Shown: positions 34,528-58,460, counted from the stretch's first letter. The stretch is 64,000 nucleotides of DNA from Nitrospirota bacterium (GCA_035516175.1 DATJAO010000062.1:14040-78039); one strand, 5' to 3'. The notes: generated from the letters alone by a model not told the origin. A program made the numbers and translations.

Positions 34528-35481
34528 TTACAGAGTCGCCCGTATTGTGTCGAGCCCGTCGTTGTAATGATCTCGCCCTGGATGAATCTGGGCGATCAGG
34601 TGGGGAGAAAATATCTTTTCCTGCGCTATCTCCGACCCAATATATCCGAGTTTCTTTAAAACCGTAACAAACTTCATGGTCGATTTTATGTAGCCTTCGG
34701 TAAGCTGGGCGCAGTACTTTGGGGAAAGCATGAGCGTTTCGAGAACGAAGCGCTCATCAACGATGCCGACGTAATCGGCAATCAACCGCGCAGCGTCAGC
34801 TGGACGTCTCCTGATGAATTCGGTTGCTTCCTCATGGAGTCCGATAAATTTCTCTACCGTCGTCGTTTCCCGTGTTAAATATCCGCTGTCCACAACAATC
34901 CCGTAGCTTGGGTTATCGGGCCAGAGCCTCGACGGCGGGTAGAGCACCCTGCCGCCGGCGAAACGCTTGATCGCGATGGCCAGAGCGGGTGTGCCGACGG
35001 CAGCAGATACGTCGTTGTTGACCACAGCCTCGGTCACCAGATCCGCCCAGGGATAATTGATAATCTCGATCTCCCTCGCGAAGCCGAATCGGTTAATGCA
35101 GTCAAATAAGATAACGTCGTGGATGGAACCCTTTCCTGGTACGCCGATCCTGCGCCCCCGGAACTGCCTCAGTATCATTCCCAGGTCCTCGGTCTCCGGA
35201 AATCCTGTCCACTGCGCCTTCCCAGCCATGACCGTACCTTCCACATGTCCGCCTGCCACGCAGGTCACCTTGATCCCCTGGTCTATGCCGATTATAGCGG
35301 GCGGTAGCCCGATGTACGCCATATCAAGTTCGCCCCTGCTGAAGGCCTTCATGATCGCTGGACCGGTGCCCATGAGCTTCCATTCTATCTCTGCGCCAAC
35401 TCGAGAATCCGTGTCTCCCTTTGCCATCAATAGAATCGCAGTATGGTAGAAGGTTGAGAGATGTCCAATCCGGATTTTCAT
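34528..35481 (-). CDS. NMT1/THI5-like (SsuA/TauA-type) periplasmic-binding-protein fold protein without a signal peptide
   Basis: 317 aa. It starts MKIRIGHLSTFYHTAILLMAKGD with no hydrophobic leader or lipobox. The type II PBP-like pattern GELDMAYIGLPPAIIG is present. Confidence 0.6.
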   Translation of the reverse strand: MKIRIGHLSTFYHTAILLMAKGDTDSRVGAEIEWKLMGTGPAIMKAFSRGELDMAYIGLPPAIIGIDQGIKVTCVAGGHVEGTVMAGKAQWTGFPETEDLGMILRQFRGRRIGVPGKGSIHDVILFDCINRFGFAREIEIINYPWADLVTEAVVNNDVSAAVGTPALAIAIKRFAGGRVLYPPSRLWPDNPSYGIVVDSGYLTRETTTVEKFIGLHEEATEFIRRRPADAARLIADYVGIVDERFVLETLMLSPKYCAQLTEGYIKSTMKFVTVLKKLGYIGSEIAQEKIFSPHLIAQIHPGRDHYNDGLDTIRATL

Positions 35482-40223: not shown

Positions 40224-41114
40224 ATGTTTAAGGAAATAGCTATGAATGTCAGCGACAAATTTAAAAAGCGGGGGCAGGGGGTATCCCTCGAATTTTTCCC
40301 ACCCAAGTCCTCGGAGGCGAAAGATGCCTTCATGAAGGTAGTGAATGAGCTGAAGGCCTTTGACCCCCTCTACGTATCCGTGACCTATGGAGCAGGCGGA
40401 ACGACTCAGGACCGGACGCTTAACACCCTCAAATGGATCAAAAAAGAAACGGACCTGACGGTGATGTCGCATCTTACCTGTATTGGTGCAACGAAGATGT
40501 CCATGAGTGCACTCCTGAAGGAATATCAAGGCAGCGGAATCGATAACATCTTAGCCCTGCGCGGTGATCCACCGATGAACCGGCCTGACTTCGACCCAAC
40601 TCAGGGCGAGTTCAAATACGCCCGGAACCTTGTTGATTTCGTCAAGAAATATGATTATTTCTCCATCGCCGTGGCTGTGTATCCCGAAGGACACGCTCAG
40701 TCGCCGAGCATCGAGAAGGATATGGAATATACGAAGCAAAAGATCGACGCAGGGGCGGACTTCGGGATCACCCAAATGTTCTTCGACAATAGATACTACT
40801 ACGACTTCCTCGATCGGGCTGCGAAGCTCGGCATCACGATTCCCATCCTGCCGGGCATTATGCCGATCGTTGACTGCAAAAAGATCGTACAGCTTGCTGA
40901 GTTCTGCAATGCTTCCGTACCGAAGGCAATTCTGGACAGAATGGAGCCTGCTATGGACATGCCCGAGGAGATGAGGAAGCTGGGAGTCGAATACGCGGTG
41001 AAACAGTGCGAGGACCTGATAAAAAACGGCGTAAACTACCTTCACTTTTACACCATGAACCGCTCCGATTCAGTAAGTGAGATACTGAAAGCACTTCGAA
41101 TAGAAAGGCGATAG
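40224..41114 (+). CDS. metF: 5,10-methylenetetrahydrofolate reductase
   Basis: 296 aa. Motifs SLEFFPPK, YVSVTYGAGGTT, HLTCIG, ILALRGDPP, ITQMFFD and LHFYTMNR. An alternative start at 40242 (MNVSDKF) is possible. Confidence 0.9.
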   Translation: MFKEIAMNVSDKFKKRGQGVSLEFFPPKSSEAKDAFMKVVNELKAFDPLYVSVTYGAGGTTQDRTLNTLKWIKKETDLTVMSHLTCIGATKMSMSALLKEYQGSGIDNILALRGDPPMNRPDFDPTQGEFKYARNLVDFVKKYDYFSIAVAVYPEGHAQSPSIEKDMEYTKQKIDAGADFGITQMFFDNRYYYDFLDRAAKLGITIPILPGIMPIVDCKKIVQLAEFCNASVPKAILDRMEPAMDMPEEMRKLGVEYAVKQCEDLIKNGVNYLHFYTMNRSDSVSEILKALRIERR

Positions 41115-41797: not shown

Positions 41798-41831
41798 GTA
41801 GGTGATATCTCATTGTGCGAAGGGAGATGCT

Positions 41832-42860
41832 ATGAAACCGAAAGAAGTGATTTTCAAGGCATTCGAAGGGGGTAAGCCGGACAGACTTCCGGTGACCCTG
41901 TTTGGCGCAGGCATGTGGAGCATCAAGGGCTGGGGTACATCGTTCGAGGCTCTTTCACGGGACGCCGATAAGATGACCTCTATGCTCATCGACATGAGCG
42001 GGAAGCTCCAGTGTGACATCGTCTATCCGGGCTCGGGTTACAATAACTTTCATGCGTCGGCCCTGGGTGGGAAAATCAAGTGGCGGGAAATTGGCGCGCC
42101 GGACCTGGAGGACCATTTCGTCTCCTCCGAGGAGGATCTCGCGAAGCTTAGAATCAGCGACCTCGACAAGGACGAGGTCATCAACACCGTAAAGAAGGCC
42201 CTGCACAAAACGAAGGCGAAGATCGGCGACACCTACGCCGTGACGATGACGGCCTGGGGCCCTTTCACCCTCGGTGCGCGGCTGGTGGGTGAAGAGGCCA
42301 TGATGAAGGCCACGTTCAAGAAGCCCGCCTTCGTGGAGAAAGTTGTGGACTTCGCCACTGACGTACTGATCCATCTCTACGAGCCCATCGTCGCCGATAA
42401 GACGCTCGAGCTCATCAGCTTGGCCGACCCTACGGCGTCAGGCGACCTTATTTCCCGGAAACAGTTCGAGAAGTTCGCCGTGCCCTATCTCAAGAAATTC
42501 ACCGACTGGGCGAAGGCCCGGGGCGTCCATACTCTGGTGCACATCTGCGGCAACACAACGGACAGGCTGGACCTGTTCCCGCTTACCGGCGCCAGTTGCA
42601 TCAGCCTCGATCACAAGACTGACATCACCAAGGCCAAGGAGACGCTCCAAGGCAAAATGTGCTTCGGCGGGAACGTGGACCCCGTAAAGATCATGCTCAA
42701 CGGCTCTGTTCTGGACGTCGAGAATTGCTGCAAGGAGATCATCAAGGCCGCCGGTACCGACGGCGGATTCGTTCTCATGCCGGGGTGCGACATACCCCCA
42801 ACCGTTCCGTACGAGAATATCCAGAAGTTCATCCAAGTCGCGCGGGAATGGAAACTATGA
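41832..42860 (+). CDS. URO-D family methyltransferase, MtaA/CmuA-like (methylcobamide:thiol type), paralogue 1
   Basis: Start moved to the ATG at 41832 (MKPKEVIFKAFEGGKPDRLPV). H-x-C is in LVHICGNT (His codon at 42540). The distal Cys is in LMPGCDIPPTVP. Confidence 0.8.
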   Translation: MKPKEVIFKAFEGGKPDRLPVTLFGAGMWSIKGWGTSFEALSRDADKMTSMLIDMSGKLQCDIVYPGSGYNNFHASALGGKIKWREIGAPDLEDHFVSSEEDLAKLRISDLDKDEVINTVKKALHKTKAKIGDTYAVTMTAWGPFTLGARLVGEEAMMKATFKKPAFVEKVVDFATDVLIHLYEPIVADKTLELISLADPTASGDLISRKQFEKFAVPYLKKFTDWAKARGVHTLVHICGNTTDRLDLFPLTGASCISLDHKTDITKAKETLQGKMCFGGNVDPVKIMLNGSVLDVENCCKEIIKAAGTDGGFVLMPGCDIPPTVPYENIQKFIQVAREWKL

Positions 42861-42980
42861 ACAAAGGAGGTGAACCGATACTAGTTGTAGTGAGGGGAGA
42901 TTATCAAAGTGGGTATTTTGTAAGAGTTGAAAAAATTGTTTTCCCGGGCACAGAACGCGTCCGGGCAAGGGGAGGAAAAC

Positions 42981-43424
42981 ATGGCTGACAAGAAGATGAC
43001 AGTGGAAGAAGTGAACGAGTACATGAAAAAGCAGTGCGGCTTTGTGCCGAGAATGTTCCAGATCATCAACACCGTAACGCCGGAACCGGGCAGGACCTTC
43101 GCCGATTTCTACGCCAGCATCTTCGGCGATGGGGCCCTTTCCCGCAAGGTGAAAGAGCTGATGTTCATGTCCGGCGGAGTAGGTTACTGCTCGCCTCGCT
43201 GCATTATCCACGTGATCCCCGCGATCAATGCGGGTGCGACCACGGGAGAGATTTTCGAAGCGGCGTCGGTCGGCATGATCCTCGCGGGCTTTGTTCCCGG
43301 CGGGCCCGGCATTCCCTACGCCTTCGAGTACGCCCTGAAGTGCCTGGACATCGAGGCGAAGTACCGCAAGGGCGAGAAGTGGGAATACTTGCCGCAGCCG
43401 AAGTTCGATCATGGTGTGTTTTAA
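42981..43424 (+). CDS. Carboxymuconolactone decarboxylase (AhpD-like) family protein
   Basis: Start moved to the ATG at 42981, with GGAGGA upstream. Contains GALSRKVKELMFMSGGVGYCSPRCIIHVIPA, the AhpD/CMD-like helix with paired Cys and His. Confidence 0.7.
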   Translation: MADKKMTVEEVNEYMKKQCGFVPRMFQIINTVTPEPGRTFADFYASIFGDGALSRKVKELMFMSGGVGYCSPRCIIHVIPAINAGATTGEIFEAASVGMILAGFVPGGPGIPYAFEYALKCLDIEAKYRKGEKWEYLPQPKFDHGVF

Positions 43425-43438
43425 ATCCATTATTTAAT

Positions 43439-43462: not shown

Positions 43463-43596
43463 GATTCTGACTCATACATTCATTCTTAAGCGATAGCGAC
43501 CTTCAAAGTAACTTGTGCACTTCATAATCACGCATTTGCTCCGGCCTACCCCGCATCTTACGGCGCTTGTCCGGGCAAGAGAAAAGGGGAGCGGTG

Positions 43597-44544
43597 ATGT
43601 TTCGGTTTAAACGAGATCAGAAAGTATATGTACTCGACGGGATTCGGGTCGGAGGGCAGGCCGGTGAGAACCCTCCGCTGTTGATTGCATCCATGTTTCA
43701 TAACAAGGACCGAATTGTTACAGACCGGAAAGGCAATTTCGACCACCAGAAAGCTGCAGAACTCATCAAGCAGCAGGAAAAACTTTCAACCTCCACCGGC
43801 ATCCCGTCCATGGTGGCCATGGTGGCGAACACCCCAGATGAGGCAAAGATCTACATCGACTTCTACCGTGAAACGACCACCATGCCCTTCGGCATCGACA
43901 TGTGGGTCGCCGAGAAGAGAGCCGAGGCCACGGAGTACGTGGCGAAGTTGGGACTGCAGGACAAGTTCTTGTACAACAGCATCACCCCCTGGGACAAGGA
44001 CATCAAGGGTCAGGTCCAGAAACTCAAAGACCTCGGAATCAAGCACGTTGTGGTCCAGGCCTTCGACGACGCTGACCAATCGCCCCTTGGGCGCCTGAAG
44101 TCATTGGAAAAAATTCTTGCCCAGGGCGCGGACAGCTTCAAGACCATCATCGTCGACACCTCCGTCATGAATCTGCCTGCCACATCGTTCTCGCTCGTTG
44201 CCAACCGCTTGATCAAAGAGACGCTCGGGCTTCCCTGCGGCGGCGCCTACTCCAACGGCACGCACATGTGGAAGGATGCGAAGACCATCTGGAGCCTCGA
44301 CGGTTTCAAGGCCATGGACGCCGTTGTCCAGGGCATGGCATCGGTGATCTGGAGCGATTTCAATTTCTACGGCCCCATCGTTACGGCGCCGCGCATCTTC
44401 CCGGCGGTAGCGGCAGCGCATATCCTGCTTACAACGCTGTTGTATGACGAAACTAAAAGAATTCCCGACAATCCCAATATCCCGATCAAGAAGTACTTCG
44501 GTGATTTTCTGGGCAAGCTAACGTCGGGGGCGGCGAGGAAATAG
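43597..44544 (+). CDS. MtrH-like methyltransferase (tetrahydromethanopterin S-methyltransferase subunit H family; pterin:corrinoid methyl transfer)
   Basis: Start moved to the ATG at 43597. MFRFKRDQKVYVLDGIRVGGQAGENPPLLIASMFHNKDRIVTDRKGNFDHQKAAELIKQQE follows the N-terminal pattern I recall for MtrH (MFRF..EQ.V.eigGvk.GGqpGE.PtvLigsiFy......D..G.FD...AE.Li). LYNSI is also present. Confidence 0.83.
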   Translation: MFRFKRDQKVYVLDGIRVGGQAGENPPLLIASMFHNKDRIVTDRKGNFDHQKAAELIKQQEKLSTSTGIPSMVAMVANTPDEAKIYIDFYRETTTMPFGIDMWVAEKRAEATEYVAKLGLQDKFLYNSITPWDKDIKGQVQKLKDLGIKHVVVQAFDDADQSPLGRLKSLEKILAQGADSFKTIIVDTSVMNLPATSFSLVANRLIKETLGLPCGGAYSNGTHMWKDAKTIWSLDGFKAMDAVVQGMASVIWSDFNFYGPIVTAPRIFPAVAAAHILLTTLLYDETKRIPDNPNIPIKKYFGDFLGKLTSGAARK

Positions 44545-44560
44545 AAAAAGGGAATTTTGG

Positions 44561-44661: not shown

Positions 44662-44705
44662 AGAAAGTCCTGTATTTGACTTTCGATCTGCACTAAGGAG
44701 GAACT

Positions 44706-45734
44706 ATGGCAACAATGAATGCGCGAGAACGGGTACTGAAGATGTTCGCCGGTGAAGAGATCGATCGGCCTCCCTGCTTCAGCGGGATGGGCAATGTGAC
44801 TACGGAGGGCCTCAAGGGGCTCGGGCAGAACTTTGCGGCGACGCATCTCAACGCGAAGATGATGGCCGCGGCCGCGGCTTCGACCTACAAGCTCTTCGGC
44901 TTCGAATGCGGCGTGGCCCCCTTCGACCTCTGCATCGAGGCCGAGGCCATGGGATGCGAGATCAACGTGTATGCCCATTCAGAGGACCTGCTGTATCCCA
45001 CGATCAAGAAGAAGCTGATCCACAACGAAGCGGAATTGGACATCTCCATACCCTCCAATCTCACAACGCGCGGAAGGGTGCCGCTCATGAAGGAGACGAT
45101 CCAACTGCTCAAGAAGGATATCGGCAGCGAAGCGCCCATCGGTTCCTACGTGCTCGGGCCCTTCACGCTGGCCGGACAAATCATGGAACTGAACGATTTG
45201 CTGAAGCTGTCCTTCAAAAAGCCGGACAAGATCGGGAAGCTTCTCGATCAGATGGCGGACGTGATCATCCGGGTGGCGAAGGAGTACGAACAGGCCGGTG
45301 TGGACTTCATAACGGTGCGGGAGATGGGGGCGACGTCGGACGTTCTGAGCCCGCGGGTGTTCAAGAGCCTGATCCTGCCGTACCTCAAAAAGATCTTCGA
45401 AAAACTGAACGTGCCGAGCGTGCTCCACATCTGCGGCAAGACGAATGACATCGTCCCGTTCATGGCCGAGAGCGGTTCGAAAGCGATCAGCGTGGACCAG
45501 AAGAACGACGTTGCCGAGACACGCAAGAAGCTCGGCCCCAAGGCGCTGGTCTTCGGGAACTATGACCCTTACAACGTGTTGGTAGCGGGCTCGCCGGACC
45601 TGGTGCGCCAGACCATCAAGAAATGCATGGATGACGGAGTGACCGCAGTCTGGCCCGGCTGCGACATCTGGCCGACGGTGCCGCCGGATAACATGAAGGC
45701 CATGATGGACGAAGTTAAAAATTACCGGAGGTGA
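44706..45734 (+). CDS. URO-D family methyltransferase, MtaA/CmuA-like (methylcobamide:thiol type), paralogue 2
   Basis: 342 aa. N-terminus ERVLKMFAGEEIDRPPCFSG. H-x-C is in VLHICGKT (His codon at 45426). The distal Cys is in VWPGCDIWPTVP. Confidence 0.8.
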   Translation: MATMNARERVLKMFAGEEIDRPPCFSGMGNVTTEGLKGLGQNFAATHLNAKMMAAAAASTYKLFGFECGVAPFDLCIEAEAMGCEINVYAHSEDLLYPTIKKKLIHNEAELDISIPSNLTTRGRVPLMKETIQLLKKDIGSEAPIGSYVLGPFTLAGQIMELNDLLKLSFKKPDKIGKLLDQMADVIIRVAKEYEQAGVDFITVREMGATSDVLSPRVFKSLILPYLKKIFEKLNVPSVLHICGKTNDIVPFMAESGSKAISVDQKNDVAETRKKLGPKALVFGNYDPYNVLVAGSPDLVRQTIKKCMDDGVTAVWPGCDIWPTVPPDNMKAMMDEVKNYRR

Positions 45735-45738
45735 TCCT

Positions 45739-46431
45739 ATGGTTACGGAAGAAAAAAAGGCGGAGCTCTTGGCGAAACTGCGGAACGCCGTGATCCAGTA
45801 CGATGAGGATACGGCCAAGGAAGCGGCTCAAGAGGCACTGGACGTTGGCATGGAAGCGAACGACGCCATTTTCAACGGTTTGGTGAGCGGCATGGTGGAA
45901 GTGGGAAAAATGTTCGAGGCGCAGGAATACTTCGTGCCCGAACTGCTCATGTGCGCCGACGCGCTGTACGCCGGCCTGGATATCCTGAAGCCCCATGTGA
46001 AACAGCTGGACCTGGGGGTGAAGGGCTCGGTCGTGATCGGGACCGTGGAAGGCGACGTTCACGATATCGGCAAGAACATCGTGAAGATGATGTTCGACGT
46101 GGCCGGTTTCACGGTCTATGACCTAGGCAGGGACGTGCCGCTCGACAAGTTTGTGCAAGAGCAGCTCCGGACCGATTCCGACCTTGTCTGCCTTTCGGCC
46201 ATGATGACTACAACGATGACGGGAATGAAGAAAGTGATCGACGACCTTCGGACCAGAAACCCCAATGTGAAGATCATGATCGGCGGAGCTCCCGTTTCCC
46301 AGGACGTGGCGGACAAGTACGGCGCAGACGGATACGCAAAAGACGCGACCAACGCATTGAAGGACGCCATCAACATGATCGCGTCCCTCAAGAAGATGAA
46401 GGATGAGGTGGAAGCCAAGAAGGCGAAATGA
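45739..46431 (+). CDS. Methyltransferase cognate corrinoid protein (B12-binding, MtaC/MtbC/MttC-like)
   Basis: 230 aa. N-terminal helical cap, then the DxHxxG motif in VEGDVHDIGKNIV, followed by LSAMMTTTM and IMIGGAPV. Confidence 0.9.
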   Translation: MVTEEKKAELLAKLRNAVIQYDEDTAKEAAQEALDVGMEANDAIFNGLVSGMVEVGKMFEAQEYFVPELLMCADALYAGLDILKPHVKQLDLGVKGSVVIGTVEGDVHDIGKNIVKMMFDVAGFTVYDLGRDVPLDKFVQEQLRTDSDLVCLSAMMTTTMTGMKKVIDDLRTRNPNVKIMIGGAPVSQDVADKYGADGYAKDATNALKDAINMIASLKKMKDEVEAKKAK

Positions 46432-47078
46432 AGACCTCGCTGAAGCGGGAGCTGCTGGACCACGGCGCCGCGGTTGTGGGAATCGCTGGCCTCCGCGGGT
46501 ACCTGAGCGGCGAGATCAGCCACTTGGACCGGGCGGTGTCCATCGGTGTGGACCGGAAGCTAAATGAGGACACCCTCAGCCAGCTGGTGAGTCTCCAGAA
46601 GCGCGCCGTCCGGTTCCTGAAGGCCCGGGGACACCGGACTCTGGCCATACCGCCGGACTCGGACCGCAAGAAGGACACGTTCATCTCGAAGCTCTACTCC
46701 CTGTTCAATCACAAGATGGCCGCCACGTCGGCGGGGCTGGGCTGGATCGGGAAGAACGGTCTTCTCATAAGCCCCCGCTACGGGCCGCGGTTGTCCCTGG
46801 CCACAGTGCTGACGGACGCCCGGCTCAAGCCGGACGCGCCCGTCGAACACTGCCTCTGTGGAGAATGCATGCTCTGCATTGAGCACTGCCCTTCGAAGGC
46901 CATAACCGGGTCGGAATGGTCGCGGTCATCGCCTTTCGCGGAACTGGTAAAGCTCAATGCCTGCAGAAGTCATAAAGCTGCGAAAAGAGCAACGGACAAC
47001 AAACCCAATTGCGGGCTATGCATCAACATATGCCCATATGGAAGAAGAAATTCTGACATGAAGAATGCGGAACGCTGA
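46428..47078 (+). CDS. 4Fe-4S double-cluster protein related to the epoxyqueuosine reductase (QueG) / reductive dehalogenase core
   Basis: 216 aa. Contains HKMAATSAGLGWIGKNGLLISPRYGPRLSLATVLTDARL, then CGECMLCIEHCP and CGLCINICP. The start overlaps the corrinoid protein stop (ATGA). Confidence 0.68.
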   Translation: MKTSLKRELLDHGAAVVGIAGLRGYLSGEISHLDRAVSIGVDRKLNEDTLSQLVSLQKRAVRFLKARGHRTLAIPPDSDRKKDTFISKLYSLFNHKMAATSAGLGWIGKNGLLISPRYGPRLSLATVLTDARLKPDAPVEHCLCGECMLCIEHCPSKAITGSEWSRSSPFAELVKLNACRSHKAAKRATDNKPNCGLCINICPYGRRNSDMKNAER

Positions 47079-47184
47079 GTGCGGAAAGAAAAACGTCATT
47101 CCCGCATAAATGGGAATCCAAGGTGTCATCTGTGATCATCTGTGGCTAACCATTGCAGATGTGTTTTTATTATCGGGAGGAAGA

Positions 47185-49161
47185 ATGTCGAAGAAACATA
47201 AGGTCATTTTCCAGCCCTCGGGCAGGCGCGGCGAGATCGAGGAAGGTAAGACCATCCTCGAGGCAGCCCAGGCCCTGGGCGTTGACATCGAAGGGCTCTG
47301 CGGCAATAAGAAGGTCTGCGGCAAATGCAAGGTGAGGATCGAGGAGGGCTACTTCGAGAAGGACAACATCGACTCGGGAATGACACACCTCTCGCCGCTA
47401 ACCGAGGCGGAGAAGAAGCACATCAAACCCGAGGATGGGCCCGGCATCCGGCTGTCCTGCACCGCGGAAGTACACGGCGATATCAAGGTCTTCGTGCCCG
47501 AGCGGTCGCGGGCCGGCAAGCAGGTGGTGCGCAAGGCTGCTAAGGAGCTGACGATCAAGCTCGATCCGGCGGTGAAGAAGTACAACGTGGACCTCGTGCC
47601 GCCGACACTCCACGATATGACTACGGGAGACTGGGAGCGAGTGCTCAAGTTCCTCGAGGACGACTACGGACTCAAGGGGCTCACCTTCGATTACCTCGTC
47701 CTGAAGGACCTCCAGGACCTCCTGCGTAAGGGCGAATGGAAGGCCACGGTCACGGTCTGGATGGACAAGGAGATCATCAAGGTGGAACCGGGGTTCGTCG
47801 AAGAGAGCTACGGGCTGGCCGTGGACATCGGCACCACGACCTGCGTGGGCTACCTCACGGACCTCAGCACAGGCAAGGTGGTAAACACCGAGTCCATGAT
47901 GAACCCCCAGGTTCCCTACGGCGAGGACGTGATGTCCCGCATCACCTACGCGATGAGCAATCCCCGCGGGCTCGAGACCATGCAAAAGGCGATAATCCAG
48001 GGCCTGAACGAGATCATCGAGCGAGTGGTGACCGAGATCAGGAAGGACGGTCCCAACCCGGGGCATATCATCGATGATCTCACGATCGTGTTCAACACGG
48101 CAATGCACCACATCTTTCTGGGTCTGAACCCCGAGTATATCGGCCGTTCACCCTTCATTCCCGCGGTCCAGAGCTCGCTCGACCTGAAGGCGCGCGACCT
48201 AGGGCTCCGGATCAATCCTGCGGCGTACATCCACGTCCTGCCCATCGAAGCGGGCTTTGTGGGCGCGGACAACGTGGGCGTGCTGATTGCTGAGGAGCCT
48301 TACAACCAGGACGAGAACGTGCTGATCATTGACATTGGAACGAACGGCGAGCTGCTCATGGGGAACCGGAACAAGGTCTGCTCCACGTCCTGCGCAACGG
48401 GACCGGCCTTCGAAGGCGCCCAGATCAAGTTCGGCATGCGCGCAGCGCCAGGCGCCATCGAGACCGTGGAGATCGATCCCGCGACCAAGGAGCCCCGCTA
48501 CAAGGTCATCGGCAAGGCGGACTGGCACACACACATCGAGAACGTGAACGCCAAGGGCCTCTGTGGCTCCGCCATCATACAGGTCGTCGCCGAGATGTTC
48601 AGGGCGGGTATCGTGGACAAAAGCGGACGGTTCGTCATGGATCTGGGAACACCGCGCGTTCGGAAGGACGCCGATGGCAAGCCGGAGTACGTGCTCGCTT
48701 GGGCCTCCGAAACCTCCATCGGCCAGGACATCACCATTACCCAGGGCGACGTGCGGGCGCTCCAGCTGGCCAAAGGTGCACTTTACACCGGCGCGAAGCT
48801 CATGATGAAACGGCTCGGTATTGCCACGCTGGACCGGGTGATCCTCGCCGGCGCCTTCGGGAGCCACATCGACCGCGAGGCGTCCATGACGCTCGGCATG
48901 TTCCCGGACTGTTCTCTCGACAAGGTCTACGCCGTGGGCAACGCGGCCGGAGACGGTTCGCGTATGGCGCTCCTGAATCGGGACAAGCGGCGCGAAGCGA
49001 ACGAGCGTGCTCGGTGGGTCGAGTTCGTCGAGATCGCCACAGATCCGCTGTTCGAGAGGGAGTTCATGCAGGCGATGCACATCCCGCACATGAAGGACAT
49101 GTTCCCGAACTTGAAGGAGCTTCTTGCAAAGAAGGGGAGCACAGTGGAGATCAAGGGGTAG
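47185..49161 (+). CDS. RamA-type corrinoid reductive activase (N-terminal 2Fe-2S ferredoxin plus ASKHA/DUF4445 ATPase)
   Basis: Start moved to the ATG at 47185, with GGGAGGA upstream. Plant-type ferredoxin Cys pattern LCGNKKVCGKCKV...RLSCTA. ASKHA motifs GLAVDIGTTT, IIDIGTNGE, CATGPAFEG and GNAAGDG. Confidence 0.85.
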   Translation: MSKKHKVIFQPSGRRGEIEEGKTILEAAQALGVDIEGLCGNKKVCGKCKVRIEEGYFEKDNIDSGMTHLSPLTEAEKKHIKPEDGPGIRLSCTAEVHGDIKVFVPERSRAGKQVVRKAAKELTIKLDPAVKKYNVDLVPPTLHDMTTGDWERVLKFLEDDYGLKGLTFDYLVLKDLQDLLRKGEWKATVTVWMDKEIIKVEPGFVEESYGLAVDIGTTTCVGYLTDLSTGKVVNTESMMNPQVPYGEDVMSRITYAMSNPRGLETMQKAIIQGLNEIIERVVTEIRKDGPNPGHIIDDLTIVFNTAMHHIFLGLNPEYIGRSPFIPAVQSSLDLKARDLGLRINPAAYIHVLPIEAGFVGADNVGVLIAEEPYNQDENVLIIDIGTNGELLMGNRNKVCSTSCATGPAFEGAQIKFGMRAAPGAIETVEIDPATKEPRYKVIGKADWHTHIENVNAKGLCGSAIIQVVAEMFRAGIVDKSGRFVMDLGTPRVRKDADGKPEYVLAWASETSIGQDITITQGDVRALQLAKGALYTGAKLMMKRLGIATLDRVILAGAFGSHIDREASMTLGMFPDCSLDKVYAVGNAAGDGSRMALLNRDKRREANERARWVEFVEIATDPLFEREFMQAMHIPHMKDMFPNLKELLAKKGSTVEIKG

Positions 49162-49389: not shown

Positions 49390-49707
49390 ATGACAACGGT
49401 CGTCGTCAACTCCGGAGCGTGCGGTTTTACGATCACTATAAAGGCCAAGAAGGGAAAAGAAAGGAAGATCGACATATCCCTGAACACGGCCTGTGAGATG
49501 GTGCAGAAGATGCTTGCCGATATCGCGACCGTGGACCATAGGGTGACGCTCATAGGTTTCCGCGACAATCCGGTCTATGTGTCCGCGGCGAAGCACCTCA
49601 AACACGTAGCTTGTCCGGTTCCGTCGGCGATACTGAAAGCCATTGAGACGGAAACAGGCATGAACGTGCCAAAGGATGCTCGGATAGAGTTCGTCCGGGA
49701 GGAATGA
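49390..49707 (+). CDS. Small Cys-containing hypothetical protein
   Basis: Start moved to the ATG at 49390 (MTTVVVNSGACGFTITIKAKKGK), with GAGGA about 11 nt upstream. 105 aa. No motif recognised. Confidence 0.45.
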   Translation: MTTVVVNSGACGFTITIKAKKGKERKIDISLNTACEMVQKMLADIATVDHRVTLIGFRDNPVYVSAAKHLKHVACPVPSAILKAIETETGMNVPKDARIEFVREE

Positions 49708-49785
49708 CGGTGCTGGTGGCTTTCCCATTATCCCGTACGAAGCCAATGTGTTATACTGATATTACCACTTTGGGAATGGGCGGCC

Positions 49786-50472
49786 ATGGGTACGATAGTG
49801 ATTGTTGCTGCATATGGTGTGTATGCGGCGTTCTGGATACGGTTCTTGCTGCATGCACTGCTTTGGTGGAAGGCGGTGACACGGCCCGCCACGATCGTCG
49901 GACCTTTGTCGCCATCGTCTGTCAAGGCATGGGCCTTTTCGGCACGGGACGTGGTCCTTTTCTGGAGACTTTTAAAAGTCAACCCAGCGCTGTGGTTCGG
50001 CGAATGGCTGTTCCATGTGTCGTTCCTGTTCGTTATCATGCGGCACCTGCGCTATGTTTTTCTCCCCGTCCCGGAGTGGGTATGGTGGTTCCAGATTCCC
50101 GGGCTGATCGCCGGATATATCCTTCCTCTGTCCCTGCTCTATATCTTCATCGTCCGGATGTTCTCGGTCCGGGAAAAATATTCTACGCCTGCCAACATGG
50201 TTCTGTTGGGCCTGCTGTTCGTGATCAGTTCCCTTGGCCTGCTGATGGTCACTCTGTTCAGGACCGATGTCGTGGCGGTAAAATTGTTCACCATCGGCAT
50301 CCTGAGCGTTACACCGGCCGCTGTGCCGGGCAGCATCCTGTTCCTGCTGCATTTTTCCCTGGTCTTGATCCTGATCCCTTTACTCCCGACCCACATCCTG
50401 ACCGCTCCGTTGGTGATGCTGGAGGCGAGGAAACGGGATTTGGGGCTTCCCCTGGTGATGCATGAAGAATAA
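49786..50472 (+). CDS. NarI/HdrE/DsrM-like integral membrane cytochrome b-type subunit
   Basis: 228 aa with about five hydrophobic helices. Conserved-looking His residues sit in helices (FLLHALLWW, WLFHVSFLFVIMRHL, LLHFSL, PTHIL). The 3' end overlaps the HdrD-like gene by 11 nt. Confidence 0.6.
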   Translation: MGTIVIVAAYGVYAAFWIRFLLHALLWWKAVTRPATIVGPLSPSSVKAWAFSARDVVLFWRLLKVNPALWFGEWLFHVSFLFVIMRHLRYVFLPVPEWVWWFQIPGLIAGYILPLSLLYIFIVRMFSVREKYSTPANMVLLGLLFVISSLGLLMVTLFRTDVVAVKLFTIGILSVTPAAVPGSILFLLHFSLVLILIPLLPTHILTAPLVMLEARKRDLGLPLVMHEE

Positions 50473-51664
50473 GCAGTCATTTACCGAAGATCTTTCGCCC
50501 CGGCAAATCCTTGAAATCGACGCTTGCACCCAGTGTGGCGAGTGCCTGAAGCACTGCCCCGTACAGGACGTGACGGGCAACCCCGCGGTTTCACCACCGG
50601 AGAAGATCCGCATGTTCCGTGAGTTCATCCGTGCCTCTGACGGTCTTAAGGCCAAGCTCTTCGGGCCGGGCGAGGTGGACCGTAAACTGCTTGAGGATTT
50701 CACCCGGGCAGTATTTGAATGTACTACCTGCGGAGCCTGCGGCCAGAACTGCCCCGTCGGCATTTTCACACAGCGGCTCTGGCCCATGCTCAGGAAAGAG
50801 ATGGTAAAGCGGGGCCTCGGCCCCATCGGCATCCAGGCGAACTTGCCGAAGGCCATTACGAGCAGCGGCAATCCCTATGATAAGCCTGCAGCCGATCGTT
50901 ACCGGCCCTGGTTCCCGGAGAATGCAAAGGTGGCCGACCGGGCGGACGTGGCCTATTACGCCGGATGCACGGGCTCCTATGAGGCGCAGCCCATGGTGCG
51001 CGGAGACGCCCTCGTGCTGGGCGCCATGGGTGAGCCATTCACCATGCTGCCACCGGACGAGGAGGTCTGCTGTGGATTCCCGCTCTTCATCACGGGACAG
51101 CACGACCTGCTCGAGGACCTGGTCAAGAGGCTTGTGGAAGGATACAAGGCCAAGGGCGTACGGACGCTCGTCTGTTCGTGCCCCTGCTGCGTGAACATCA
51201 TGTCGCGGGACTGGCCAGCGATCTACGGCCATGAGCTGCCCTTCACGATACGGCATATTACCCAGTTCGTTGCTACAGCCATGGAGCAGGGAAAACTTCG
51301 TATCTCGAAAGAACTGCACGAACGGGTGATCTACCACGACCCCTGCTATCTCAGCAGGGGAGTTGGAGTCATTGAGGAGCCCCGTGAGGTGCTCCGGCGC
51401 ATCCCCGGGCTCACGCTGCTTGAGTTCGAGCGGCACGGCCTGAACTCGCGCTGCTGCGGCTCCGGCGGCGCCGCACGGAAGGTGTTTCATGAGAATGCCA
51501 TCAAGATGGGAAGGCTGACGATCGACGAGGCTGTCAAAAAAAAGGCGGATCGGTTGATCCTGTCCTGTCCCGCGTGCTACGCCAAGGTGAACGAGGCAAT
51601 GCAGGAGCATGACAAGCAGATCAGGATCACCGACATCATGGAACTGATTTCAAGTTTGATTTAA
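50462..51664 (+). CDS. HdrD/DsrK-like Fe-S oxidoreductase (two 4Fe-4S motifs plus two CCG domains)
   Basis: 400 aa. Cluster motifs CTQCGECLKHCP and CTTCGACGQNCP. CCG motifs EVCCGFP and SRCCGSGG, with DPCY between them. Confidence 0.85.
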   Translation: MKNKQSFTEDLSPRQILEIDACTQCGECLKHCPVQDVTGNPAVSPPEKIRMFREFIRASDGLKAKLFGPGEVDRKLLEDFTRAVFECTTCGACGQNCPVGIFTQRLWPMLRKEMVKRGLGPIGIQANLPKAITSSGNPYDKPAADRYRPWFPENAKVADRADVAYYAGCTGSYEAQPMVRGDALVLGAMGEPFTMLPPDEEVCCGFPLFITGQHDLLEDLVKRLVEGYKAKGVRTLVCSCPCCVNIMSRDWPAIYGHELPFTIRHITQFVATAMEQGKLRISKELHERVIYHDPCYLSRGVGVIEEPREVLRRIPGLTLLEFERHGLNSRCCGSGGAARKVFHENAIKMGRLTIDEAVKKKADRLILSCPACYAKVNEAMQEHDKQIRITDIMELISSLI

Positions 51665-51756
51665 AATGGCGACTTGCCTGCTTACAGGCTTTAAAGCTTT
51701 TACTATGTTCATCCGTGGTTAATGTGGGTTCCGGATTTTGTCGAAGGTGAGACATC

Positions 51757-53013
51757 ATGAGCCATTATTCCATACGATGCAGGAAGTGCGGAAAGATCCT
51801 TGGGAATTCCTACTGCGCCGACTGCGAGCACTGTAAAGATGCTCTCCTCGTGACCGAGTATCGCAATCACCTCTTCATGGAGAGCGGGGCGAAGGGCGTC
51901 TGGAGGTTTAACTGGCTTCCAGTCCATCAGCCTCATTCCGTCCAACCGGGACCAGTCGTGTATCGTTCCATCGGTCTCGCGGAGCATCTCAGCCTCAAGG
52001 AGCTCTTCATCGCTTTCAACGGCTACTGGCCAGAGAAAGGGGCGCTGCTCGAGACCTGTACCTTCAAGGAGTTTGAGGCCGCCGTAGTGCTCCAGAACGC
52101 CCGGGAGAACGGTGTCGGTGGCCTGATCGTCGCATCGGCGGGGAACACTGCGCGGGCCTTCGCGCACCTTTCGGCGAAGAAGGGCTTGCCGGTGGTCATC
52201 GTTGTGCCGCGGATGTGTCTGACAGAAATGTGGTATCTCGAAAGCTCTTCCTTGGTGCCCACGCTGGCCGTGGGAGACGGCGACTACTCGGACTCCATCG
52301 ATGTGGCGAAGCGCATCGCCCTGACCACGGGCTTCCCGTTTGAGGGAGGAGTAAAGAATATCGCAAAACGAGACGGCCTCGGTATCGTGATGCTTGAGGC
52401 GGTTTCGAAGATAGGAAAACTGCCGGACCACTATGTCCAGGCCGTAGGAAGCGGCACCGGCGCAGTCGGAGGCTGGGAAATGGCAGAGCGGCTCGTCAGG
52501 GACGGTAGGTTCGGTACGCGCCTGCCGAAACTCCACCTGGGGCAAAACGTGCCCTTTGTGCCCATGCTCCATGCCTGGGAGAAAGGTAGCAGGTCTTTGT
52601 TTCGCGAGGACCTGAATCCCGAGCTTATCGGCCACATCACAACGCGCGTGCTTTCGACCCGCTACCCGGCCTATTCGGTGCAAGGCGGCGTGTTCGATGC
52701 CCTTACCTCGGCCGGCGGCGGAATGTACGGCGTTGAGAACGAGGCGGTATATGCAGCAATGGACGAGTTCCTCAAGACCGAGGGGATCGACCTTGTTCCT
52801 GCATCGGGTGTCGCCGTAGCTGTGCTCAAAGATGCCGTGCGGAAAGGCACGATCGGGAAGAGCGATACCATCCTTCTGAACATCACCGGCGGTGGCGAGG
52901 CGCGGTTACGGAAGGATAAGCAGACCCATATGGTCATCCCGAAGTTCATATCGAAGAACGCGACGGAGAAAGATATCGAGGACCTGCTGTGCCACGACCT
53001 GAAGAAGAGTTAA
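51757..53013 (+). CDS. Cysteate synthase-like PLP enzyme (threonine synthase fold)
   Basis: 418 aa. N-terminal Cys-rich ribbon RCRKCGK...CADCEHC. The lysine region TCTFKEFEA replaces the PTGSFKDRG motif of true threonine synthases. SAGNTARAFA is present. The 3' end overlaps a ComDE-like gene. Assigned from recalled family features and gene context. Confidence 0.6.
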   Translation: MSHYSIRCRKCGKILGNSYCADCEHCKDALLVTEYRNHLFMESGAKGVWRFNWLPVHQPHSVQPGPVVYRSIGLAEHLSLKELFIAFNGYWPEKGALLETCTFKEFEAAVVLQNARENGVGGLIVASAGNTARAFAHLSAKKGLPVVIVVPRMCLTEMWYLESSSLVPTLAVGDGDYSDSIDVAKRIALTTGFPFEGGVKNIAKRDGLGIVMLEAVSKIGKLPDHYVQAVGSGTGAVGGWEMAERLVRDGRFGTRLPKLHLGQNVPFVPMLHAWEKGSRSLFREDLNPELIGHITTRVLSTRYPAYSVQGGVFDALTSAGGGMYGVENEAVYAAMDEFLKTEGIDLVPASGVAVAVLKDAVRKGTIGKSDTILLNITGGGEARLRKDKQTHMVIPKFISKNATEKDIEDLLCHDLKKS

Positions 53014-54134
53014 TAGCAATACTGAAAAGGAACGGTGTAGATTTCACCGCATCGCTCCCCTGTGAGAAGATCAAGACCTTGCTCGAGATGGTAGGCCGGT
53101 CCTTCACTCACCTTCCGCTGACGAGGGAAGAGGAGGGCGTGGGCATCTGCGCCGGCGCGGCCCTCGCTTGCAGGAAGCCGGCTATGTTTGTTCAAAGTTC
53201 AGGAATCGGGAACATGATCAATGCCCTGCTCTCCCTCACGGCGTTCTATGAACTTCCCCTTGCCCTGTTCGTGAGTCGGAGGGGAATTTACAAGGAGAAG
53301 ATCGAGGCTCAGTTCCCCATGGGCCGGCGGCTCCCTAGCATCCTGACAGGCGCAGGGATCAATCATGCCGAAATAAACAGCAGAGAAGATTTCAGTATTG
53401 TGGAACAGAAGCTTCAGCACGTGTATCCCAAGAGCAGCATCCATGCATTTCTGTTAAGCCCGGCTATATGGGAAAATTCCGAGTGCGAAGTGTCTAGTGT
53501 GGAGTGCGGGATTAAAAAAGACAAAAAAACTCCTGAGACTTTGGGCGAAAGGCGAGAAGCAAAAGTAAGGCAACATGCGCAGTTGACCCGGTACGAGATC
53601 ATCAGGCTAATCGCATCGTACCTTGACAGGAAAGTCGTTGTCAGTAATCTCGGCTGGCCTTCCAAGGAACTCTATGCTCTAAAGCATCAGCCCTCGAATT
53701 TCTACATGCTGGGAAGTATGGGGATGGTCACGCCCATCGGACTAGGCATCGCGCTTACGTCATCTAAAGAAATCATCGTGATCGACGGCGACGGCAGCCT
53801 GCTCATGAATCCCGGCAGCCTCGCAACGGCAGCCTCTGTTGCGCCATACAATCTAACCATCATCGCCATCGATAACGGTGCATACGGCTCAACAGGAAAC
53901 CAGCCGACGCTGGCTGGGACCTGCGTAGATCTTGAATACGTGGCGCAGGGGTTCGGGATCAGGAATACCGTGAAAGTGGCGAGTGAAGAGCAGATTGTTG
54001 GAGTGATGCAGAAACCGCGGTCTGGGCTGACTTTTATTCACGTCTTGGCTATTCCGGGAAACAGGGACGTGCCGAATATCCCCCTGCACCATCTGGAAAT
54101 TAAAAAGCAGGTGCAGGAATTTTTGAAGAGATGA
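52989..54134 (+). CDS. comDE: Sulfopyruvate decarboxylase, fused alpha-beta (ComDE-like, ThDP-dependent)
   Basis: 381 aa. LPLTREEEGVGICAGAALA and RRGIYKEKIEAQFPMGRRL match what I recall of ComD (PVTREEEGIGICAGAYLAG, RG...EKI.AQ.PMGR), not phosphonopyruvate decarboxylase. The C-terminal half has the ThDP motif VIDGDGSLLMN...IDNGAYGSTG. GTG start, uncertain. Confidence 0.78.
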   Translation: MPRPEEELIAILKRNGVDFTASLPCEKIKTLLEMVGRSFTHLPLTREEEGVGICAGAALACRKPAMFVQSSGIGNMINALLSLTAFYELPLALFVSRRGIYKEKIEAQFPMGRRLPSILTGAGINHAEINSREDFSIVEQKLQHVYPKSSIHAFLLSPAIWENSECEVSSVECGIKKDKKTPETLGERREAKVRQHAQLTRYEIIRLIASYLDRKVVVSNLGWPSKELYALKHQPSNFYMLGSMGMVTPIGLGIALTSSKEIIVIDGDGSLLMNPGSLATAASVAPYNLTIIAIDNGAYGSTGNQPTLAGTCVDLEYVAQGFGIRNTVKVASEEQIVGVMQKPRSGLTFIHVLAIPGNRDVPNIPLHHLEIKKQVQEFLKR

Positions 54135-54293
54135 TCCGAATGCATCGGAACGGAAAAAGATTACACGACGAGTCTCGAAGAGCACAGAAGAAAAGCATTT
54201 GAATCTTCTTATGTTTTCTCTTTTTTCTCCATTAGCCCCGTGACTTCATGGGAGATCTTCTTTCCTTTCGTCAATAAGTTATACTGTTCATTA

Positions 54294-54917
54294 CTACAAT
54301 CTTCCCGTCTTCTGGTACTCCTGAACATAAAGCCTGATCGCCCGCAGCATGATCCAGTCCAAGGTAACGCTGTTGTCCGTTGCAATCCGGATGAGTTCGT
54401 CAATCAGCTCCTTATCGATGGTAGGTTGACCAACAGGTTGAGATGCGGAAACTTCTTCTTCTGTCTTTGTCTCCGTGCCGTGCCTCCCTTTCTGGTGTTC
54501 CCGGCGAAGAAGGTCCATAAGCTCCCTTACATCACCGCCTTGTATCGCTTGTCTAACATCATCCGGTATCTCTTCTGCTGACGGTCTCTGCCCTGAAGTC
54601 GCGTTTTCCGATGAAAGCGGCTGCTCCCTGTTCTCAGGTGTATGCGATGAGACTGCAGTGTTGCCCGCAGGCATTATCCCCGTCATACCCATCATCATGG
54701 TTGCAAGGTTTCGGGCATATTCATTGTCCGGCATTTCCTGCTGGAGAAATTCCTCGAGCTTTCCCTCTGACATGGCAGCGGCCATGCGATCTGCCATGAG
54801 TGTTGTCTGCTCTTCCTGTTCAGACCGTTTTTTTCTGCCGAAGGCGGTTGTCAGTGGCTTTGGTAAAGGCTTTTCTTTATCGGTTTTTTTCATGTTCTCC
54901 TTTGGACCAGTTTCCAT
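54294..54917 (-). CDS. Hypothetical protein, low-complexity with a possible ribbon-helix-helix-like C-terminus
   Basis: 207 aa. It has a charged, disordered-looking body. The C-terminal segment is TIDKELIDELIRIATDNSVTLDWIMLRAIRLYVQEYQ. Confidence 0.4.
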   Translation of the reverse strand: METGPKENMKKTDKEKPLPKPLTTAFGRKKRSEQEEQTTLMADRMAAAMSEGKLEEFLQQEMPDNEYARNLATMMMGMTGIMPAGNTAVSSHTPENREQPLSSENATSGQRPSAEEIPDDVRQAIQGGDVRELMDLLRREHQKGRHGTETKTEEEVSASQPVGQPTIDKELIDELIRIATDNSVTLDWIMLRAIRLYVQEYQKTGRL

Positions 54918-55228
54918 CGCAGCTGCAGAACGGCATTACTGCTTCCCGGGGTCTGTTTACAGTCAGGAGGCAAAGTTTTGGACTTATATTCGTACTCAAA
55001 GGTAACGGATCCCGCCATGCACTTCTCCGCGGTATGCAGATACAATATATCACGGTCAAGACATTGTCAAGACGGTTCGCTTAATTAACCCTCTGCTGCT
55101 GTTAATTTAATTATTGCAGTAATTGAAAAGAAAAGGTAAATTGGATTCAAGCAATTCCTCTCGCAGCCGCATAGGAATTCAGCGTTCTTATGATCCGGCT
55201 CCAATATCATAAAGATTAAAAGGAGAAA

Positions 55229-58447: not shown

Positions 58448-58460
58448 GGATCCTCCGGAA

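Follow-up and report, generated by a model that had tools for sequence, protein, structure and literature searches.

Coenzyme M (CoM) is viewed as a hallmark of archaeal methane and alkane metabolism. To our knowledge, the only bacteria known to contain CoM are alkene oxidisers, whose pathway for making it is unrelated. In Methanosarcina acetivorans, MA3297 (cysteate synthase, CS), MA3298 (fused ComDE) and MA3299 (MMP16/ComF) form the type-2 CoM cluster (Graham et al. 2009; PMC11844431), and deletions of MA3297-MA3298 result in CoM auxotrophy (PMC11844431). Here we describe a gene pair of the CS and ComDE families at positions 51757-54134 of a 64,000-nucleotide stretch of DNA from a Nitrospirota bacterium (GCA_035516175.1, DATJAO010000062.1:14040-78039), referred to below as the window. 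The pair has the gene order of M. acetivorans, the fused form of ComDE, and the same motifs at the pyridoxal phosphate (PLP) lysine and the thiamine diphosphate (ThDP) site. In contrast to M. acetivorans, the host is a bacterium without a known methyl-CoM reductase (MCR), the two genes overlap by 25 nt, and the pair is set in a block of methyltransferase and HdrD-like genes. There is also no MMP16 gene after ComDE, a place taken in related archaeal operons by an SsuA-like protein without a signal peptide.

The CoM route of Xanthobacter autotrophicus Py2 (ComA, XcbB1-E1; PMC9457059) is likewise bacterial, but it starts from phosphoenolpyruvate, uses entirely different enzymes and intermediates, and serves alkene and epoxide metabolism; none of the scanned window proteins was seen to be of the ComA type. 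Bacteria also make cysteate from phosphoserine with the CS of Bacteroidota sulfonolipid (capnine/sulfobacin) biosynthesis (PMC11211663, PMC11525784). In that path cysteate is condensed with acyl-CoA and there is no ComDE, whereas loci of the window type have ComDE and no such acyltransferase linked to the pair.

The cysteate synthase and ComDE gene pair

The two open reading frames (ORFs) and their overlap are located as follows.

51757..53013, plus strand: ORF1, cysteate synthase by family, a PLP enzyme of the threonine-synthase fold, 418 aa (TIGR03844, 9k3c, motifs)
52989..54134, plus strand: ORF2, fused ComDE by family, a ThDP enzyme, 381 aa (TIGR03845, TIGR03846, Pfam)
52989..53013, plus strand: overlap of the CS stop region with the ComDE start, 25 nt

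The initial annotation had described ORFs of 418 and 381 aa with a 25-nt overlap; its coordinates match exactly, and the overlap recurs in relatives. ORF1 opens with ATG and ORF2 with GTG, with AGGTGA and GAGGA, respectively, ~7 nt upstream. Relatives were compared in a set of 80 loci, 63 of them bacterial with CS proteins 64-95% identical to that of the window, and counts are given below as loci with the feature over eligible loci. The ComDE start lies 1232 nt past the CS start, equal to the 25-nt overlap, in 31/57 bacterial loci and is shifted by multiples of 3 in the rest; in the archaeal loci the overlaps are 4 nt. The 25-nt overlap suggests translational coupling of the two genes. The GTG start of ORF2 is credible, since GAGGA lies upstream, the TIGR03845 match begins at residue 5, the homologues open with the same MPRPEEEL or MSRPEEEL, and the start offset recurs. 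A later start without overlap was rejected: the next in-frame Met is residue 34, and its use would cut off the conserved ComD N-terminus. Both ORFs are real genes and not chance ORFs, considering that a homologue search returned ~8,000 sequences at E<=1e-20, the best 120 of which are 75-94% identical, and that an independent gene call in another (ENA) assembly, with precomputed Pfam matches, reproduced both genes and the map of the surrounding module.

By family, ORF1 is a cysteate synthase, as had been proposed, and the profile model, the solved homologue, the motifs and the M. acetivorans-like pairing agree on this point. It scores 462.9 bits on the NCBIfam equivalog TIGR03844 (EC 2.5.1.76; cut-off 324.9). 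The solved cysteate synthase 9k3c aligns at 302 bits over residues 4-408, and threonine synthase structures reach no more than 46 bits. The Cys-rich N-terminal ribbon noted earlier is present as CRKCGKILGNSYCADCEHC, with Cys8, 11, 21, 24 and 27. The motif TCTFKEFEA, also noted earlier at the PLP lysine, is in place, and its Lys104 aligns with the lysines of tcsFKEtEA in 9k3c and of GSFKDRG in the threonine synthase 2zsj. The motifs TC(T/S)FKE, ASAGNTARAF, GG.(K/R)N.A(K/R)RDG, QA.GSGTG and NITGGG are essentially invariant in 57 bacterial and 16 archaeal CS homologues, the archaeal set including that of Methanoperedens, a genuine CoM user. A threonine synthase is ruled out, every ThrC model being far under its cut-off (best 86.8 bits against 303; all <=87 against cut-offs of 167-421). 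Homology predicts that ORF1 converts O-phosphoserine and sulfite to L-cysteate and phosphate. The bacterial proteins of this family are already labelled 'cysteate synthase' in GenBank and JGI.

ORF2 belongs by family to the fused ComD and ComE sulfopyruvate decarboxylases, with ComD-like residues 5-161 and ComE-like residues 201-378, and would by homology convert sulfopyruvate to sulfoacetaldehyde. The model for the alpha subunit, TIGR03845 (EC 4.1.1.79), gives 179.1 bits (cut-off 147.95), and that for the beta subunit, TIGR03846, a marginal 222.1 bits (cut-off 221.5). Pfam finds TPP_enzyme_N and TPP_enzyme_C, and the ThDP motif reads GDGSLLMNPG...DNGAYGSTGNQ. The two ComD-type motifs of the initial annotation, TREEEGVGICAGA and RRGIYKEKIEAQFPMGRR, are present and conserved in bacterial and archaeal ComDE; ORF2 is 41-53% identical to the archaeal ComDE proteins that adjoin CS.

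The nearest rival for ORF2 is phosphonopyruvate decarboxylase (Ppd), which would place the pair in phosphonate biosynthesis. The Ppd model TIGR03297 does align over the full length at 209.6 bits, and the best solved relatives of ORF2 are putative Ppd subunits (78 and 51 bits); we know of no ComDE structure that could serve for comparison. This Ppd score is 100 bits short of its cut-off (312.5), whereas both the ComD and the ComE models pass, and the ORF2 gene is always paired with CS. The initial annotation would have been contradicted by a place next to pepM-like genes in relatives, and no pepM-like or pepM-sized neighbour is conserved across the 80 loci; a crude regular expression for a phosphoenolpyruvate (PEP)-mutase-type motif found none in the window or in those loci. 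The hidden Markov model (HMM) cut-offs, the constant pairing with CS and the lack of a visible PEP mutase rule out Ppd and leave it hardly any credence, in agreement with the earlier placement of ORF2 as ComD-type rather than Ppd-type.

The surrounding methyltransferase and disulfide-reductase module

CS and ComDE are the last two genes of a co-directional array at 41802-54134, ~12 kb in length. The initial annotation was right about the enzyme pair and missed its conserved surroundings of methyltransferase, HdrD-like and cytochrome b genes, which are the most informative fact about the locus. The genes upstream of the pair are listed below, starting with MetF, which ties the block to folate C1 metabolism as context.

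40224..41114, plus strand: methylenetetrahydrofolate reductase (MTHFR) MetF, upstream context (PF02219, 317 bits)
41802..42860, plus strand: UROD1, second MtaA/CmuA-like URO-D protein, 352 aa, under the family cut-offs (20/33 loci)
42927..43424, plus strand: AhpD/CMD-like protein, 165 aa, weak AhpD-domain matches, invariant CSPRC...H
43567..44544, plus strand: MtrH-family methyltransferase (PF02007; NF002142 319.7 bits, cut-off 287; 29/36 loci)
44706..45734, plus strand: UROD2, MtaA/CmuA-family protein resembling methylcobamide:thiol methyltransferases, 342 aa (36/40 loci)
45739..46431, plus strand: corrinoid (B12-binding) protein, 230 aa (Pfam B12-binding_2 and B12-binding; 39/43 loci)
46428..47078, plus strand: 2x[4Fe-4S] protein (Fer4), like the C-terminal part of QueG and reductive dehalogenases (41/44 bacterial loci)
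47110..49161, plus strand: RACo-type reductive activase of corrinoid proteins, 2Fe-2S and ASKHA (46/47 loci)
49390..49707, plus strand: DUF6951 small protein, ~105 aa (PF22263, 104 bits; 20 bacterial and 2 archaeal loci)
49786..50472, plus strand: membrane cytochrome b of the NarI/DsrM/HdrE type, 228 aa (47/53 loci)
50462..51664, plus strand: HdrD-like iron-sulfur protein, 400 aa (Pfam CCG twice and Fer4_8; 54/57 loci)

Across ~60 loci of Nitrospirota/Thermodesulfovibrionia, this module stays linked to CS-ComDE and the downstream housekeeping genes do not, the downstream flank of the bacterial loci holding FKBP in 12/48, YidC in 8/40 and RnpA in 7/40. It should be mentioned that part of this synteny could be inherited, since almost every locus with the complete module belongs to a single bacterial class.

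The strongest evidence that the linkage is meaningful comes from an archaeon. In the Hydrothermarchaeales locus L065, genes for an MtaA-like protein, a corrinoid protein, RACo, an MtrH-like protein, CS, ComDE and an SsuA-like protein form a single co-directional operon, spaced by -4 to +6 nt, and a divergent set encodes DUF6951, a second MtaA-like protein, an HdrD-like protein, cytochrome b and an AhpD-like protein. Subsets of this arrangement occur in L064 and L066, where CS, ComDE and the SsuA-like protein are found with AhpD-like, DUF6951, DsbA-like, HdrD-like and cytochrome b genes. The window proteins are identical to their L065 counterparts at 64% (corrinoid protein), 60% (RACo), 55% (UROD2), 53% (ComDE), 52% (UROD1), 47% (CS) and 43% (SsuA-like), values that point to inter-domain transfer of the whole module. 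Hydrothermarchaeota have been reported to lack MCR (PMC6775978, PMC6946796). Compared with loci of the Methanoperedens and other Methanosarcinales type (L067-L079), the window CS is 43-47% and ComDE 41-45% identical; in the Methanoperedens loci of this set no gene after ComDE is shared between loci.

UROD2 passes NF004889, 'methylcobalamin:coenzyme M methyltransferase' (281.4 bits, cut-off 244), and TIGR01463 (251.2, cut-off 235.4), and is below the equivalogs for MtaA (NF040654, 251.9 against 400) and MtbA (NF041608, 191.3 against 600), so its thiol substrate is not assignable by homology. The solved MtaA 4ay7 aligns with UROD2 at 167 bits, with the zinc ligands HxC and PGC in register and invariant in 37 sequences. 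UROD1 is 27% identical to UROD2 and keeps HxC...PGC; both proteins thus retain the His-x-Cys...Cys zinc site of MtaA. The MtrH-family protein is under the cut-offs of the Mtr-complex MtrH and MtgA equivalogs and is probably a methyl-corrinoid:tetrahydrofolate methyltransferase; the MtrH-like MtoA passes its methyl group to tetrahydrofolate (H4F) or tetrahydromethanopterin (H4MPT) and not to CoM (PMC8630106). The corrinoid protein scores 210.5 bits on TIGR02370, just below the cut-off of 215.3, and RACo matches Fer2, RACo_linker, Raco_middle and RACo_C_ter of Pfam. The QueG/reductive dehalogenase-like gene is in no archaeal locus and belongs to the bacterial version of the module only.

The HdrD-like protein has two ferredoxin-type 4-Cys motifs and two CCG motifs (CX_nCCX_nCXXC), and all 20 cysteines are conserved in 49 sequences. 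Its gene is overlapped by that of cytochrome b by 11 nt. Two [4Fe-4S] and two CCG motifs beside a cytochrome b of the di-heme type constitute the architecture of the HdrDE type. The best NCBIfam match of the HdrD-like protein is TfrB of thiol:fumarate reductase (CoM/coenzyme B), at 183 bits against a cut-off of 385, followed by DsrK at 86 against 400. The cytochrome b matches DsrM weakly (46 bits, cut-off 300) with four conserved His, and its archaeal counterpart gives a weak Nitrate_red_gam match. The AhpD/CMD-like gene occurs in 15 bacterial and 3 archaeal loci, and its orthologue in L027 matches PF02627 (CMD). In DUF6951, Cys11, Cys35, His72 and Cys75 are invariant.

The block can be compared with two described kinds of methyl-transfer system. 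Like the methylotrophic methanogens (MtaA/MtbA/MtsA, corrinoid protein, RamA, Mtr, HdrDE), it contains an MtaA/CmuA enzyme with zinc ligands, a corrinoid protein, an ATP-dependent activase and an MtrH homologue, and as in methanogen HdrDE an HdrD-type protein with two CCG motifs adjoins a di-heme-type cytochrome b. Unlike in those organisms, an MtaB/MttB-type MT1, a membrane Mtr complex and MCR are all missing from the window, the activase belongs to the bacterial RACo type, and no window protein reaches the equivalog cut-offs of the methanogen enzymes. With the Mto/Odm systems of Methermicoccus, Archaeoglobus, Desulfitobacterium and acetogens (PMC8630106, PMC8359953) it shares the clustering of an MtrH-like transferase, a corrinoid protein and a RACo-like activase. 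Those clusters feed the methyl branch of the Wood-Ljungdahl pathway; near the window block there is MTHFR and, in some loci, FolD. The Mto/Odm systems use an MtvB-type O-demethylase of ~47 kDa in hosts that make no CoM, whereas the window has two MtaA/CmuA proteins of ~38 kDa and linked CoM-type genes.

Insertions within the module were also seen in relatives. A FolD-like gene (methylene-H4F dehydrogenase/cyclohydrolase, by sequence only) is inside the module in 4 loci, including L027:6751-7698, where it stands between DUF6951 and cytochrome b, and L037:6992-7936. In L012 and L022 a gene resembling methyl-accepting chemotaxis proteins is found between RACo and cytochrome b.

A further partner lies upstream in the window and another conserved gene downstream.

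34528..35481, minus strand: SsuA/TauA-like protein without a signal peptide (NMT1_2), 317 aa (PF13379)
54294..54917, minus strand: conserved 207-aa protein convergent with ComDE, on the opposite strand 3' of ComDE in 36/48 loci

The orthologue of the SsuA-like gene is translationally coupled to ComDE in archaeal operons and is just 3' of ComDE in many Nitrospirota loci. The protein aligns with SsuA_fam over the full length at 73 bits, under the cut-off. Its conservation is high and includes many invariant His and Cys, and it lacks a signal peptide as well as a permease or ATPase partner. The AlphaFold (AF2) model (pLDDT 85) has TauA, Thi5 and SsuA as top folds at TM 0.74-0.78. This predicts with confidence a fold of the substrate-binding-protein type, equally near to the TauA/SsuA binders and to the Thi5 enzyme, and the protein may bind sulfonates in the cytoplasm or may be an enzyme with this fold. 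It holds the position after ComDE that MMP16/ComF holds in M. acetivorans, which is suggestive only; it could be a new partner in the last sulfonate-processing steps. The 207-aa protein has no Pfam or NCBIfam match, and its C-terminus looks ribbon-helix-helix-like by eye only.

It is noted that a gene for a cytoplasmic PAS/GAF histidine kinase (35617-37647) runs divergently from the SsuA-like gene and is followed by those for a sigma-54-dependent response regulator (37769-39100) and a CobW-family GTPase (39093-39962, minus strand). A gene for a 542-aa fusion of ACT-type regulatory domains with a metallo-beta-lactamase fold (32885-34513) directly adjoins the SsuA-like gene on the other side. 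Regulation of the module may lie with the unit at 34528-39962 that contains kinase, response regulator and cobW. When 40000-55200 was scanned for promoters and terminators, the counts did not exceed shuffled expectation, and the sigma-54 -24/-12 pattern had 27 matches against 28 expected. Only two of these are suggestively placed, at 41438-41453 (plus strand) and at 40152-40167 (minus strand), the latter a good match, TGGCATCATCATTGCA, ~190 nt upstream of cobW.

Proposed pathway and its alternatives

A methanogen-type route to sulfoacetaldehyde had been claimed for this locus, and the HMM cut-offs, the solved homologue, the motifs and the MA3297-MA3298-like pairing all support the enzyme assignments behind it. 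In the proposed route, CS would condense O-phospho-L-serine with sulfite to L-cysteate and phosphate, an unlinked general aminotransferase would convert cysteate to sulfopyruvate, and ComDE would release CO2 to give sulfoacetaldehyde, together the archaeal 'type 2' branch. No aminotransferase gene is in the module; a class-V aminotransferase is encoded 47 kb away at 4420-5568, and in methanogens the step is carried out by a general, unlinked aspartate aminotransferase (PMC12713407). As a side observation, this class-V gene follows one for an AMP-forming acetyl-CoA synthetase (both within 2491-5568), and an acetyl-CoA synthetase-like gene is also directly 5' of CS in L067 ('uncultured archaeon') and L070 of the Methanoperedens group, a recurrence that is probably coincidental.

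We favour, with slightly more confidence than doubt, biosynthesis of sulfoacetaldehyde that likely leads to CoM or a close thiol-sulfonate and serves the methyltransferase and disulfide-reductase proteins encoded next to the pair. What follows is a hypothesis on how the thiol is made and what it is, and on which way and to what end methyl groups and electrons move. Sulfoacetaldehyde would be converted to CoM (2-mercaptoethanesulfonate) or a close thiol-sulfonate, the thiolating agent being perhaps a new enzyme, a COG1900-type sulfurtransferase encoded elsewhere, or sulfide without an enzyme. The zinc methyltransferases of the MtaA/CmuA family would then swap a methyl group between the corrinoid protein and the thiol, the MtrH-like enzyme would connect the same corrinoid protein to methyl-tetrahydrofolate, and the HdrD-like protein with cytochrome b would couple the thiol/disulfide pair to the membrane quinone pool.

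Sulfite for the first step is plausibly of internal origin, given a sulfur-relay cluster at 61363-63916 of the window.

61363-61731, minus strand: DsrE-like protein
63143-63616, minus strand: DsrE2-type protein (PF13686, 191 bits)
63629-63916, minus strand: TusA

A TusA-DsrE2-DsrE cluster is typical of organisms with dissimilatory sulfur metabolism and fits such a host here. The initial annotation had left two options, biosynthesis of CoM or another sulfonate and catabolism, and only the former is favoured by our comparison. In the catabolic route, imported cysteate, sulfolactate or sulfopyruvate would be converted to sulfoacetaldehyde and desulfonated, with the sulfite feeding respiration. 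Bacterial ComDE does take part in the breakdown of sulfolactate by Roseovarius, the host of the window is probably a respirer of sulfur compounds, and an SsuA-like protein is present. However, CS consumes sulfite and phosphoserine to build cysteate and is therefore of no use where cysteate is the starting compound; the SsuA-like protein lacks the signal peptide, permease and ATPase of an importer; and no gene for Xsc, isethionate lyase (IslAB), cysteate lyase (CuyA) or sulfolactate dehydrogenase is conserved in the 63 bacterial loci. We consider catabolism very improbable.

Several observations weigh against the biosynthetic reading that we prefer. The margin of TIGR03846 over its cut-off is only 0.6 bits. 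Neither MMP16 (TIGR03287, COG1900d)/ComF nor L-ASST (PF01837) was found among ~55 scanned window proteins, nor is MMP16/COG1900 one of the families that recur in the 10 kb on either side of CS in the 63 bacterial loci. Where relatives have insertions 3' of ComDE, a search for a ComF candidate brought up only lineage-specific genes, none of them conserved (by eye, a radical-SAM-like protein with CxxxCxxC, an APC-type permease, a multihaem cytochrome and a transposase-like protein). On the other side, anaerobic bacteria do have COG1900 sulfurtransferases, M. acetivorans without MMP16 still makes CoM, so that back-up routes exist (PMC11844431), and the Methanoperedens loci of this set likewise have no conserved gene after ComDE.

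The use of the product raises further objections to CoM. We know of no methyl-CoM-consuming enzyme in bacteria, which leaves the purpose of a CoM methyltransferase unexplained. Pairs of an HdrD-like protein and cytochrome b, such as DsrMK, occur commonly in sulfur-metabolising bacteria, where their substrates are different. Members of the MtaA/CmuA family also use methanethiol, dimethyl sulfide, methylmercaptopropionate and chloromethane. MtrH-like enzymes operate in organisms without CoM (PMC8630106). The methyltransferase genes alone thus do not require CoM.

With these points in mind, sulfoacetaldehyde could instead be the precursor of a sulfonate that is not a thiol (isethionate, taurine or sulfoacetate, for instance), which would act as compatible solute or sulfite sink; the linkage to the module would then have no mechanistic meaning. 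The enzymes themselves establish sulfoacetaldehyde production only, no CoM synthase was found nearby, the conserved SsuA/TauA-like partner would bind any small sulfonate, and synteny within what is nearly a single bacterial class may partly reflect descent. Yet the genes conserved beside the pair include none for a sulfoacetaldehyde reductase, a taurine aminotransferase or a sulfoacetaldehyde dehydrogenase, and the sulfoacetaldehyde consumers Xsc, IslAB, SarD/IsfD and Tpa were found neither among the conserved neighbours nor among the scanned window proteins. The module has kept its linkage while the opposite flank was scrambled, and the same genes form one tight operon in an archaeon. A non-thiol product is unlikely on this evidence.

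The thiol/disulfide character of several module proteins bears on another explanation, in which CoM or a related thiol is mainly a redox thiol or a carrier of sulfane sulfur. The HdrD-like protein and cytochrome b would then be a disulfide reductase and the AhpD-like protein a thiol-dependent peroxidase, and the methyltransferases would handle methylated sulfur compounds separately. CoM is an antioxidant thiol in Methanosarcina (PMC12713407), and besides the HdrD-like protein the loci encode an AhpD-like protein with CxxxC, DUF6951 with its 3Cys-1His site and, in archaea, a DsbA-like protein; the sulfur-relay cluster of the window would also fit. It leaves unexplained, however, why MtaA-like, corrinoid protein, RACo and MtrH-like genes share one L065 operon with CS-ComDE, and we regard it as rather improbable.

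Host genome and meaning of the finding

The closest contigs are Nitrospirota metagenome-assembled genomes (MAGs), with a 95% identical CS in DATJZV010000053. The CS family spans Thermodesulfovibrionales, Ca. Sulfobium and Dissulfurispiraceae at 64-95% identity, and its next relatives are archaeal at 43-47% (Methanoperedens, other Methanosarcinales, Hydrothermarchaeota). A quick neighbour-joining tree of CS has one bacterial clade, apart from the Hydrothermarchaeota and Methanoperedens groups. The CS of L013 (labelled Betaproteobacteria, with a Nitrospirota-type module) and of L053 (Rokuibacteriota) are nested in the Nitrospirota clade at 65-79% identity, which suggests mis-binning or recent transfer. 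In L053 (8512-12700), CS-ComDE is followed by genes for a ThiF/MoeB-like E1, a JAMM-type protease and a ThiS/MoaD-like protein ending GG(HG). In the Spirochaetota MAG L073 (436-7538), a ThiS-like and ThiF-like pair is 5 kb from a 43%-identical CS-like gene without ComDE. These ThiS/ThiF genes, identified like the E1 and the protease from their sequences, could belong to a sulfur-carrier-protein thiolation route or to other chemistry of those CS-like enzymes.

The window itself, from a soil or sediment bacterium, carries bacterial core genes (mnmE, mnmG, rsmG, parA, parB, yidC, rnpA and a PagL-type lipid A deacylase). Of the origin-proximal genes, mnmE, mnmG, rsmG, parA and parB lie in 17443-24806 and yidC and rnpA in 56756-59035; this set places the module in the chromosomal core near oriC, and dnaA was not seen in the window. 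Scans that covered all of it found neither an Rfam family nor a tRNA. An 803-aa protein made up nearly entirely of ankyrin repeats (11476-13887, minus strand) is encoded in the stretch of lowest GC content (0.45-0.46, against ~0.55 elsewhere) and may have been acquired horizontally. A 355-aa protein (21758-22825) has a P-loop domain of the eukaryote/archaea-type CLP1 polynucleotide kinase (PF16575, 124 bits), unusual for a bacterium.

In the literature that we covered, incompletely, on cysteate synthase or ComDE in Nitrospirota/Thermodesulfovibrionia, on CoM in Hydrothermarchaeota and on comDE in non-methanogens, this linkage was not found described. The gene names had already been assigned automatically. 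What may be new is that archaeal-type genes of the CoM branch are fixed to a module of MtaA, MtrH, corrinoid and HdrDE-like proteins in bacteria and archaea without MCR. We offer tentatively a broader proposal, possible in our view though doubtful, that Thermodesulfovibrionia-type Nitrospirota and MCR-free Hydrothermarchaeota make CoM by the phosphoserine route. Both would use it for methyl transfer between H4F (or H4MPT) and CoM through a soluble corrinoid system, and an HdrDE-like complex would tie a disulfide that contains CoM to the quinone pool, all without MCR, the module having been exchanged between the domains.

The archaeal-type genes occur widely in a bacterial class that is abundant in the environment, with thousands of highly conserved homologues in the databases. 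Their place at the end of the conserved block suggests that a methanogen-type cofactor is used in organisms without a known way to make methane. If CoM is made, the biology of this cofactor would reach into sulfur-cycling bacteria, and there would be either an unrecognised fate of methyl-CoM or a new role for CoM disulfides. It would also be a clear case of inter-domain transfer of a cofactor together with its users, and it would become less simple to trace methanogenesis in metagenomes by CoM-pathway, mtaA, mtrH and hdrD genes. Should CoM not be the product, the block would still be a conserved, uncharacterised methyl-transfer system linked to a sulfonate.

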